Origin: Okamejei kenojei | Lineage: Eukaryota | Direction: 5' to 3' | DNA length: 64,000 nt | Assembly: GCA_035221665.1 (NCBI GenBank) | Contig: CM069164.1 | Span: 15,438,001-15,502,000, forward strand | Part shown: piece after piece, positions 33,701-36,700 of the stretch | Position numbering within the stretch: the first letter of the stretch is position 1 | Layout of the letters: each line of letters starts with the position of its first letter | The notes under the pieces: model-generated | Seen by the model: the letters and a program-made list of their open reading frames with translations, nothing else | Told to the model about the DNA's origin: nothing | The model's database searches: none | Program-made: the position numbers and the translations under genes

Positions 33701-36700
33701 CTGATAAATCCCCAGGGCCTGATGGGCCGGATCTCAGGGTACTTAAGGAAGTGGCTCTAGATATCGTGGACGCATTGGTGATCATTGTCCAATGTTCTAT
33801 AGATTCAGGTTCAGTTCCTGTGGATTGGAAGGTTACTAATGTTATCCCACTTTTTAAGAAATGCAGGAGCGAGAAAACAGGAAATTATAGACCAGTTAGC
33901 CTGACATCAGTGGCGAGGAAGCTGCTGGAGTCAATTGTAAAAGATGAAATAGCGGCACATTTGGATAGCAGTAGCAGGATCGGTCCGAGTCAGCATGGAT
34001 TTCATGCTTGACTAATCTGGAATTCTTTGAGGATGTAACTAGGAAAATGGACAAGGGAGTGGATGTAGTGTACCTGGACGTTCAGAAAGCATTTGATAAG
34101 GTCCCACATATGAGATTAGTGGGCAAAAATTGAGTACATCTTAAACCCATGTCCTCTGGTTCTTGATTCCCCTGCTCTAGGCAAGAGACACTGTGCATGT
34201 ACCCGAGCTATTCCTCTCATGATTTTATACACCTCTACAAGATCACCCCTCATCTTCCTGCGCTCCAAGGAATAGTCCCAGCCTGCTCAACCTCTCCCTA
34301 TAGCTCAGACAAGTCCTGGCAACATCCTCGTAAATCTTCTCTGTACCCTTTCCAACACGATAACATCTTTCCTTTAACATGGTGCACAGATCTGAACACA
34401 GTACTCAAAATGTTGCCTCACCATTGTCTTATATAACTGCAACATGACCTCCCAACTTCTATACTCAATATACGGACAAATGAAACCTATAAACAAATCG
34501 CAGACACTTGCCGTCACGACACTCTTTCCTGGATATGGTCAAAGGCAGAAGAGCTCCAAGAAGTTATGGTTTGATACATTATATTTTATTCTTACATGTT
34601 ATTTTGGATGTTAACAATGGCATCAGAAAGATTCAGAACCATTTTGGGGGGGAATCACAGCAATTAATTCAGTGCAAACTGAATTATATTATAAAATATT
34701 GCAAAGGTAACACAAAAAGTTATTATCTGCAGAATAACCCTGAAATATAGATTACGTGGACAGGGAAACAGAAGCATCGCAAAGCTTAATTTACTCACAG
34801 GTTATGAATGACTACATCAGCTGACTTGAATGATCAGAAATAAGGTTTGTACTGGGCAACAGAAAAGTTGGGTAACCGTGAATGAGTAAAATGGCTACCT
34901 TGGTTAAGTGGATGTTCCCGTACCTTCACGAATTGACTGTATTAAGAAATTGTCACCACTTTCTCTACTCCAGTCAACAAAATGTTTCATAGTTCTACAT
35001 AAATTATCAGCGAATTAACTATTGCTTTAACGCCAAATTCCAAATAAGGCATAAACCAAACTATAATAAAGAAACAATGCCACTATCTAGATGTAAAGAT
35101 TTAATTTGCAGCTACATCAGACCATTCCTCTATTTGAAAAATGAAGATAGCCCATTCACAAAAGGAACATATCCCATTTCATTAAAAATTCAGAGAATAA
35201 CGGACATCATCAACCAATTAGAAATGGAACTATTTAAGTTTCTCACATCCCAGCTGTCTGAAGCCTTTTTCATTTTGGTTTTCAATTACTTTATAATCAG
35301 TTCACATTAGGACAGGCAAGACCATTGTTTTTCTGTTCTCCTTAAGGGACCATAAAATCTAATGCACACATCACAATATGCTGCAACCTCTACCTGCCTT
35401 TTAAGAATGTTAATTTTAAGATAAAGATTTCTGGGGTTCAAAATAAATTTAGCTTTCCCCCTACATAAAAGCATTTTTGTTATTTTGTTTTGAAATTCCA
35501 ATTATTCCATTAATAATATACTGGCTTATGTTTTATAACTGCATTCTTCTGATTCTATTACACTTTACTTGAAATAAACATGACAATACATACATCAATA
35601 ATTCATATTTTGAAAAATAAATTCTACTAATCTTAACACTATTAAACACACACACCACAGAACATGTTGCACCACTCAAGGTTATATTCTCCATACATTT
35701 ACTATTTTCCACAAACACTCGGTTGACCTATGCATCATTTTTTATAGTGCTTTTAAAGTGAGAATGACATCACTATATTTAAAATTGCAGGAAGGTATAG
35801 GAGGACCACTCATGGGCTAATGGGTTCTTTTCTGTTTGCCCTTTTCAGCTGGAAGAACAGACGGAACAAATGAGAAGCAGGCACATTTGGCAACAGTTTG
35901 GCCAGTGCATGATGAAGTTTAGGTATTAAGGGCTTGATGTCATTTTTTCAGTGCCAAGATCAAGTCTTGAAAGCAACAAAGAAAGATGTGCACATTAGCC
36001 TTTTGGGTTACAAATCATGGCTAAAATAGGTTGAGATTACTTTGTCCTTTCATATTTACAATTTCTCTAAAATAATTACATTGAGTAAATATTTTGAAAA
36101 ATTGTGCATTTTGATTTTAATGCTTTCCCATTTAAAATATTATATTGTTTTAAACTAAAATGATTAGTTTTCTGCTAGTTGAGTTGTTTGGTTTATAAAA
36201 TCACAATATCAGACAGCTTTCAAATTCTTGGACTGCTGGAATATAACAGCAGGAGCCAGTTGGCCCATTATATCCGTGCCACCTCTCAAAGCAAACCCAT
36301 TCTTCCCCAAAAAACTTATTTCCCTGCTTCATATTTTCTCTCACAGGTCCATCATCATCCGCCCTTCCCCTCCCCCTACTTCCCTCTGTTTCTCTTAAAT
36401 CTACACAAGATAAATTTAAAGGAGCCAATTAACCTACTGGTATGTCTGGGATGTAACATGCATACTCCATACAGACAACACCAGACTCAGTACCACAAAA
36501 GTGCCACCTGCAAAGTGAAAAAAGCTAAGAAACTTGCTGGGGACAGTGGAAAAAGCAAATCTACAGGTGGCAAAAGCTAGAATAAAGTTTTCAGAAAGAG
36601 CTAAATATTGTACAGTGAGGCCGACCAGATTTACTTCCTAGCCCTAAGAACTTCAATAAACACATACAAAATGAATAAATATGATGGACAGAGAATTACG

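Follow-up and report, generated by a model that had tools for sequence, protein, structure and literature searches.

Does the skate Okamejei kenojei possess a second, soluble form of the gamma-Klotho protein LCTL, and if so, what does its unusual C-terminus do? The question is raised by a window of 64,000 nt (assembly GCA_035221665.1, contig CM069164.1, positions 15,438,001 to 15,502,000 of the forward strand), in which a 74-nt exon-like unit with a stop codon lies between exon 12 of LCTL and the exon coding for the transmembrane (TM) helix. A first-pass annotation had read this unit as a cassette exon which would convert the membrane-anchored protein into a soluble, ER-retained pseudo-glycosidase ending in HDEV. 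The features of the region are collected in Table 1.

Table 1. Features of the LCTL–ZWILCH region (positions refer to the window)
Feature	Position	Strand	Basis or remark
LCTL (gamma-Klotho/KLPH), coding exons 1–12	9670..31356	+	AG/GT borders; relation to Amblyraja isoform X2; Pfam on P0123
LCTL exons 1–4	9670-9790, 12101-12261, 14725-14812, 16611-16720	+	
LCTL exons 5–8	19244-19372, 21297-21392, 23486-23540, 23982-24143	+	
LCTL exons 9–12	25039-25313, 27872-27998, 29222-29421, 31293-31356	+	
Candidate branch point (CTAAT), pyrimidine tract, AG acceptor	35817..35848	+	tract also conserved in teleost lctla and lctlb
Alternative stop exon, 74 nt, phase 1; soluble 24-residue tail ending WPVHDEV and stop	35849..35922	+	sequence; 40 orthologous isoform records
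25-nt block with TGCATG (35906-35911, RBFOX-type) and stop codon	35898..35922	+	identical in skate, teleost lctla and lctlb
Weak donor GTATTA directly behind the stop	35923..35928	+	GT also in teleost lctla; displaced by 5 or 11 nt in lctlb
Last intron	35923..37821	+	RNA contigs, one sample, about 1/5 of last-exon depth; possibly retained
Decayed 39-nt in-frame remnant (13 residues) of a 45-nt EEQR-type optional exon	37642..37680	+	poor acceptor, 8/21 pyrimidines
Coding part of the last exon, encoding the stalk, TM helix and short RRK tail found in the 566-residue form	37822..37934	+	
ZWILCH exons	39400-62268	-	Pfam Zwilch at 48777-48980, 56468-56632, 60100-60306; 62059-62268 below cut-off
Endogenous retrovirus-like element in last ZWILCH intron	40205-47597	+	two LTRs of about 630 nt, 94-97% alike

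With one GH1 domain, a replaced acid/base glutamate, a TM tail and ZWILCH adjoining, the gene has the features expected of LCTL and is, judged by its sequence, the LCTL of a skate-like batoid. Exons 1–12 join to 1588 nt with AG/GT at every boundary, and exon 12 ends in phase 1 at 31356, followed by GTAGGT. Continued into the 74-nt exon they encode 553 residues with WPVHDEV at the C-terminus, of which six differ from isoform X2 of Amblyraja radiata (XP_032906538.1, P0123), a model having the same exon and the same tail. Continued into the last exon they encode a membrane form of 566 residues, and upon use of the stop exon the coding part of the last exon turns into 3′ UTR. The hydropathy peak of the TM helix (2.63) is exclusive to the 566-residue form, while the N-terminal hydrophobic stretch is present in both. 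The joined exons and the hydropathy profile thus confirm the product without TM segment, with a putative signal peptide, that had been proposed, and it is likely that the LCTL product consists of such a signal peptide and one GH1 domain (PF00232, matched on P0123). The term pseudo-glycosidase also holds at the sequence level: the acid/base Glu is replaced by Asn201 and the nucleophile Glu411 is kept; in 247 records bearing the motif this position is never a Glu. Given Glu411, activity with an exogenous base may nevertheless be possible.

The surroundings of the gene show several further elements. ZWILCH is convergent with LCTL, and its last exon (from 39583) overlaps the LCTL 3′ UTR tail to tail. 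The retrovirus-like element has a Gag p30 match at 42124-42396 and a weak envelope match at 45975-46625, its reading frames being fragmented, and another ZWILCH stretch, the intronic segment 57110-57904, consists of GC-rich, near-identical units with repetitive open reading frames in several frames. LINE-type fragments with reverse-transcriptase-like frames were recognized by eye at 31900-34500, 22002-23028 and 5100-6350; the LINE-type repeats of LCTL intron 12 occur in very high copy in the runs mapped. The remnant exon in the last LCTL intron had been overlooked in the earlier reading. Its 45-nt EEQR-type counterpart is present in teleost lctlb, gar, paddlefish, amphibians, turtles and geckos; among the shark and ray isoforms listed none includes it, and the teleost lctla locus analyzed (L002) has no intact copy, a distribution suggesting that this exon is ancestral and was lost more than once.

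The borders of the 74-nt exon are clear-cut, with AG at 35847-35848, the TAG stop at 35920-35922 and GT at 35923-35924, so that the strong acceptor, right phase and GT after the stop that had been noted are all borne out. With 19 pyrimidines in 21 positions the acceptor is the most pyrimidine-rich both among the 447 AG sites that the 6.5-kb intron contains and among the 14 acceptors scored in LCTL. The donor (TAG/GTATTA) agrees with the donor consensus at 5 of 9 positions and is the weakest of the gene jointly with those of constitutive exon 7 and the remnant exon.

We then asked how widely the encoded tail occurs. The record set comprised 508 listed protein records from homologue searches and from 30 clusters (at most 15 listed members each); 21 of these exceed 1100 residues (lactase-type) and a few are unrelated. 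From this set the isoform records, all of them computational gene models, were chosen by their C-terminal HDEV end. They number 40 of the 508, from 39 species by name, ranging from chimaera to tailed frog: 8 chondrichthyan, 2 bichir, 26 teleost (lctla and lctlb), 1 coelacanth and 3 amphibian records, the last from two species. Fish LCTL predictions with similar ends, to which the first-pass annotation had alluded, therefore exist, among them lctla of Danio rerio (XP_073762540.1); this model and that of Ascaphus truei (XP_075431493.1) are automatic predictions with the same HDEV exon and tail. Membrane and HDEV isoforms are both annotated in relatives, and NCBI "isoform X" models require transcript support. 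A protein search with the tail alone matched nothing but its own query.

Within the tail, five residues never vary (40/40 each), namely W at -7 and the four of HDEV. Replacements are confined to the two positions between, -6 (P in 38, Q and S in one each) and -5 (V in 32, L in 4, A in 2, K and I in one each). The tail has 24 residues in 28 records, 21 in 8, 25 in 2, and 22 and 19 in one each; these lengths imply at least four independent indels, all of them frame-preserving. Another end after in-frame entry into the exon is seen in just two records, the fused model P0056 and isoform X1 of Ascaphus truei (P0163). In the latter model the HDEV exon is left within the Val codon, and the two exons that follow are translated in another frame; its peptide points to a putative tandem donor in this frog about 4 nt upstream of the position of the skate donor. 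None of the 176 amniote records listed has the HDEV end, nor do two lungfish records and the 15 listed members of a frog cluster. The exon may therefore have been lost in amniotes, as far as annotation rather than genomes is considered, and it seems to be absent from mammals.

At the DNA level a motif with six free third positions was run over metagenome contigs. It gave three matches, all of them true teleost lctl loci (L002, lctla; L001 and L003, lctlb). As L001 and L003 are alike in 298 of 300 nt, this test depends on two genes. All six free third positions equal those of the skate in both paralogues (P = 0.013 and 0.0017, values which are mutually dependent and are based on the synonymous identity of constitutive exons, 0.41/0.21 at four-fold and 0.57 at two-fold sites). 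The last 25 nt of the exon are identical in the skate and the three teleost sequences, synonymous sites included, and the longest identical run in seven constitutive control exon pairs is 11 nt. The acceptor tract also resembles those of the teleosts (shuffle p 0.001 and 0.013), although one of eight control acceptors scored likewise (p 0.0015). The peptide is conserved in the 40 records, and the exon with its acceptor tract at three teleost loci. A functional, conserved acceptor in the correct phase is what an alternative exon should have; the 74-nt exon is real and ancient and not a product of chance.

The identical block contains an RBFOX-type motif, and RBFOX proteins can repress an exon from within it. 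Because synonymous sites are fixed together with this motif, the RNA must be constrained as well, and on the sequence evidence we take selection to act on both RNA and peptide. The constraint on the motif has one exception, a cichlid record with Ile at -5, which is incompatible with keeping UGCAUG. A consensus RNA hairpin over UGCAUG was considered and dropped for want of covariation support. UGCAUG is documented as the RBFOX motif, in a passage that concerns motifs upstream or downstream of the exon and not inside it (PMC5840707).

Contigs mapped to 30900-40400 came from four of the ten runs listed (X1 to X4), representing three samples of one study, whose sequenced organism differs from the skate sequence at 28 of 1766 nt. 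X1, X2 and X4 exit at the ZWILCH acceptor near 39585 and therefore contain spliced RNA. In X1 and X2, which are from one sample, a contig of depth 33-40 ends at 37820, at the acceptor of the TM exon, and most of 35992-37712 lies under contigs of depth 3-8. The bin with the 74-nt exon has a depth of 4.3 and 3.3, respectively, and the bins of 34704-35337 are at zero, so that the downstream intron is covered and the upstream intron barely. X3 (probably DNA) and X4 each gave one unspliced contig across the exon. All 15 joints listed out of 203 derive from LINE repeats, and the LCTL junctions of interest are not among these 15. The RNA cover fits inclusion of the exon with the last intron often left unspliced, or alternatively slow splicing of pre-mRNA; retention of the last intron may be common. 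Two other interpretations of these contigs were rejected. An intronic poly(A) site at the contig end 37712 (ATTAAA 37695, AATAAA 37757) disagrees with the bin depth, which implies cover toward the TM exon, and in two teleost genes no AATAAA or ATTAAA is present between stop exon and TM exon. A 3.6-kb contig is probably not the full LCTL mRNA, as the depth of exon 12 is too low and X4 exits at the same ZWILCH acceptor; more likely it combines ZWILCH mRNA with the last exon of LCTL, which overlaps it.

Splicing of the 3′ end of the exon to downstream exons is modeled in P0037 and P0163; in P0037 the stop codon is joined to the TM exon in a shifted frame. A GT follows the stop directly in skate and lctla but not in lctlb, where the first two GTs come 5 and 11 nt later. 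Of the cassette that had been proposed, the conserved alternative exon stands, whereas a pure cassette is uncertain in view of lctlb without adjacent GT and of the RNA-covered downstream intron. For the protein this makes no difference: cassette splicing and intron retention give the identical product, and neither leaves a junction far 3′ of the stop.

Under the 50-nt rule, nonsense-mediated decay (NMD) acts on stops that precede the last junction by more than 50-55 nt. A poison exon would have such a stop, whereas the distance is 0 nt in skate and lctla, and the predicted escape from NMD is upheld under this rule; with the remnant exon used it would be 39 nt. In teleost lctlb we noted 11 extra nt between the stop and GTATAT (L001, oriented 1407-1425; L003), and with the 45-nt exon included the distance from the lctlb stop to the last junction would become 50 or 56 nt, right at the threshold for NMD and unlike lctla.

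The RNA data and the identical 25-nt block could also mean that the exon is mainly an off switch at the RNA level, a retained last intron giving a detained or unstable transcript and less membrane LCTL, with the peptide as a by-product of splice-regulatory DNA. The fixed synonymous sites, the conserved acceptor tract, the weak donor and the uneven RNA cover of the two introns in X1 and X2 are all in line with this idea. It does not account for the independent length changes being all in frame, although a shifted frame of the conserved block contains two stops (TGA TGA), nor for replacements that spare W and HDEV, and the stop at the very junction is unlike that of a poison exon. We therefore regard it as very unlikely.

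The evidence of splice sites, frame, loss of the TM segment, and conservation of peptide and DNA from chondrichthyans to amphibians makes LCTL very probably a gene with a membrane-to-soluble switch, and the claim that inclusion of the exon removes the TM anchor holds, with 40 HDEV records and the teleost loci behind it. The remaining question is what the HDEV tail does. It shares with the KDEL/HDEL signals, the ligands of KDELR1-3, an H-D-E-x as the very last residues of a soluble protein whose signal peptide is likely by hydropathy, and differs from them in Val at -1 instead of L, F, M or I, in the invariant Trp at -7 and in being encoded by an optional exon.

In a screen of AKDEX variants, L and F, then M and then I at -1 gave ER localization, Val not being named among the residues with more than 20% ER-only cells; the variant tested was AKDEV, not HDEV, and its value is shown in a figure only (PMC2140024). 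A review orders the signals KDEL > HDEL > DDEL > HDEV, with HDEV as the weakest binder (PMC12328878). HDEV does not occur in the main text of the paper cited there for the ranking. The order reportedly stems from an older in vitro study. Dissociation constants of 0.26 uM for HDEL and 1.9 uM for KDEL have been given in another paper (PMC8248988), so that these two sources disagree on the order of KDEL and HDEL. The retention assays cited were done with mammalian or chicken, not fish, receptors.

Firm ER retention, as the first-pass annotation had it, would require that HDEV is an efficient KDEL-type signal in fish, the isoform then residing stably in the ER lumen as a pseudo-glycosidase, with a lectin-like or chaperone-like role for example. 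Part of the evidence agrees well with this: H-D-E at -4, -3 and -2, in accordance with the rules in PMC2140024, is invariant in all 40 records, His at -4 is the strongest binder in PMC8248988, and many non-Prosite motifs retain reporters, with -5 and -6 mattering at times (PMC2140024). However, Val, present at -1 in 40/40, is not among the effective residues, the review places HDEV last, and none of the 40 records ends in HDEL though it is one base change away. Firm retention thus found no backing, and we consider it unlikely. With His expected to help and Val to hurt, leaky retrieval is the simplest reading, and weak retrieval with secretion is likelier than ER residence.

The tail could also be a ligand of something other than the KDEL receptor, either docking W-x-x-HDEV into the pseudo-active site of its own protein or binding an extracellular or lumenal partner, and the isoform would then be freely secreted. 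The Trp at -7 is as invariant as HDEV while the two residues between vary, the receptor contacts described in PMC8248988 include none at -6 and stop at -5, and no drift from Val to Leu is seen among the records listed. Docking is not supported by an AlphaFold model (146-row alignment, pTM 0.73), in which the GH1 barrel core is seen but residues 515-553 have a predicted pLDDT below 50 and the last 12 residues are without structure; loops are weak in this model too, and an earlier fold from 14 rows had reached a pLDDT of 39. Moreover, a partner would be one for which no candidate is known. We hold this explanation to be quite unlikely as a whole, though the fixed Trp, being outside the described contacts, may leave room for a second partner. 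A PDZ-ligand reading was discarded, since the tail would lie in the lumen.

We thus favor, with somewhat better than even confidence, a conserved alternative stop exon whose inclusion is predicted to replace the TM anchor by a W-x-x-HDEV tail, giving a soluble LCTL that is likely only weakly retrieved and so likely largely secreted. Judging from annotation in 39 species and the indirect RNA cover, the isoform would indeed be made. RNA elements at the two ends of the exon would regulate its inclusion; the combination of a strong acceptor with a weak donor and a UGCAUG inside the exon hints at skipping of the RBFOX type. The last intron would be spliced at the GT after the stop or be retained, junction-dependent NMD being absent in either case. 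His at -4 would raise and Val at -1 lower binding to the KDEL receptor, and retrieval would be leaky. The soluble GH1 ectodomain would act separately from the membrane form or compete with it. Going further, ancestral jawed vertebrates may have possessed a second soluble gamma-Klotho produced by an RBFOX-controlled exon, with HDEV as a tuned low-affinity signal that keeps an ER-Golgi reserve, freed when retrieval is saturated or ER calcium falls, and lost in amniotes; we regard this scenario as doubtful but possible.

A comparable arrangement is known from secreted alpha-Klotho, where splicing likewise places a stop ahead of the TM segment and appends a short new peptide at the C-terminus; there, however, the protein is truncated to KL1 far upstream and the peptide is another one (PMC8204227). 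Soluble LCTL keeps its full single GH1 domain, has its stop at the last junction and carries a KDEL-like tail conserved across jawed vertebrates. Mammalian LCTL (KLPH, gamma-Klotho) is the orthologue beside ZWILCH, with one GH1 domain lacking the acid/base Glu, and its group differs in the tail, which none of the amniote records listed possesses. LCTL is described as a type I membrane glycoprotein required for lens sutures (PMC13168428, PMC8475287, PMC4225139). Both paralogues are present in the zebrafish lens proteome (PMC12232379 supplement, PMC11952495); the supplement of the former, when searched, showed protein-level rows only. A search of the open literature, with subscription papers outside its range, gave no description of the HDEV isoform. 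The annotated HDEV isoforms are unremarked database models without functional description.

The weight of the finding should not be overstated, as splice switches between membrane and soluble forms are common, the sequence has already been modeled and mammals seemingly do without the exon. Nevertheless, gamma-Klotho is the least understood Klotho and, in the accessible literature, has been described as a membrane protein only. That a soluble isoform has been kept all the way from chimaeras to amphibians, and by both paralogues in teleosts, implies a function of the GH1 ectodomain that is independent of the TM anchor. The HDEV tail would also offer a natural case for asking whether a low-affinity retrieval signal with Val at -1 works. 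If the reading as a tuned low-affinity signal is true, amniotes would have lost a regulated-secretion form of gamma-Klotho.
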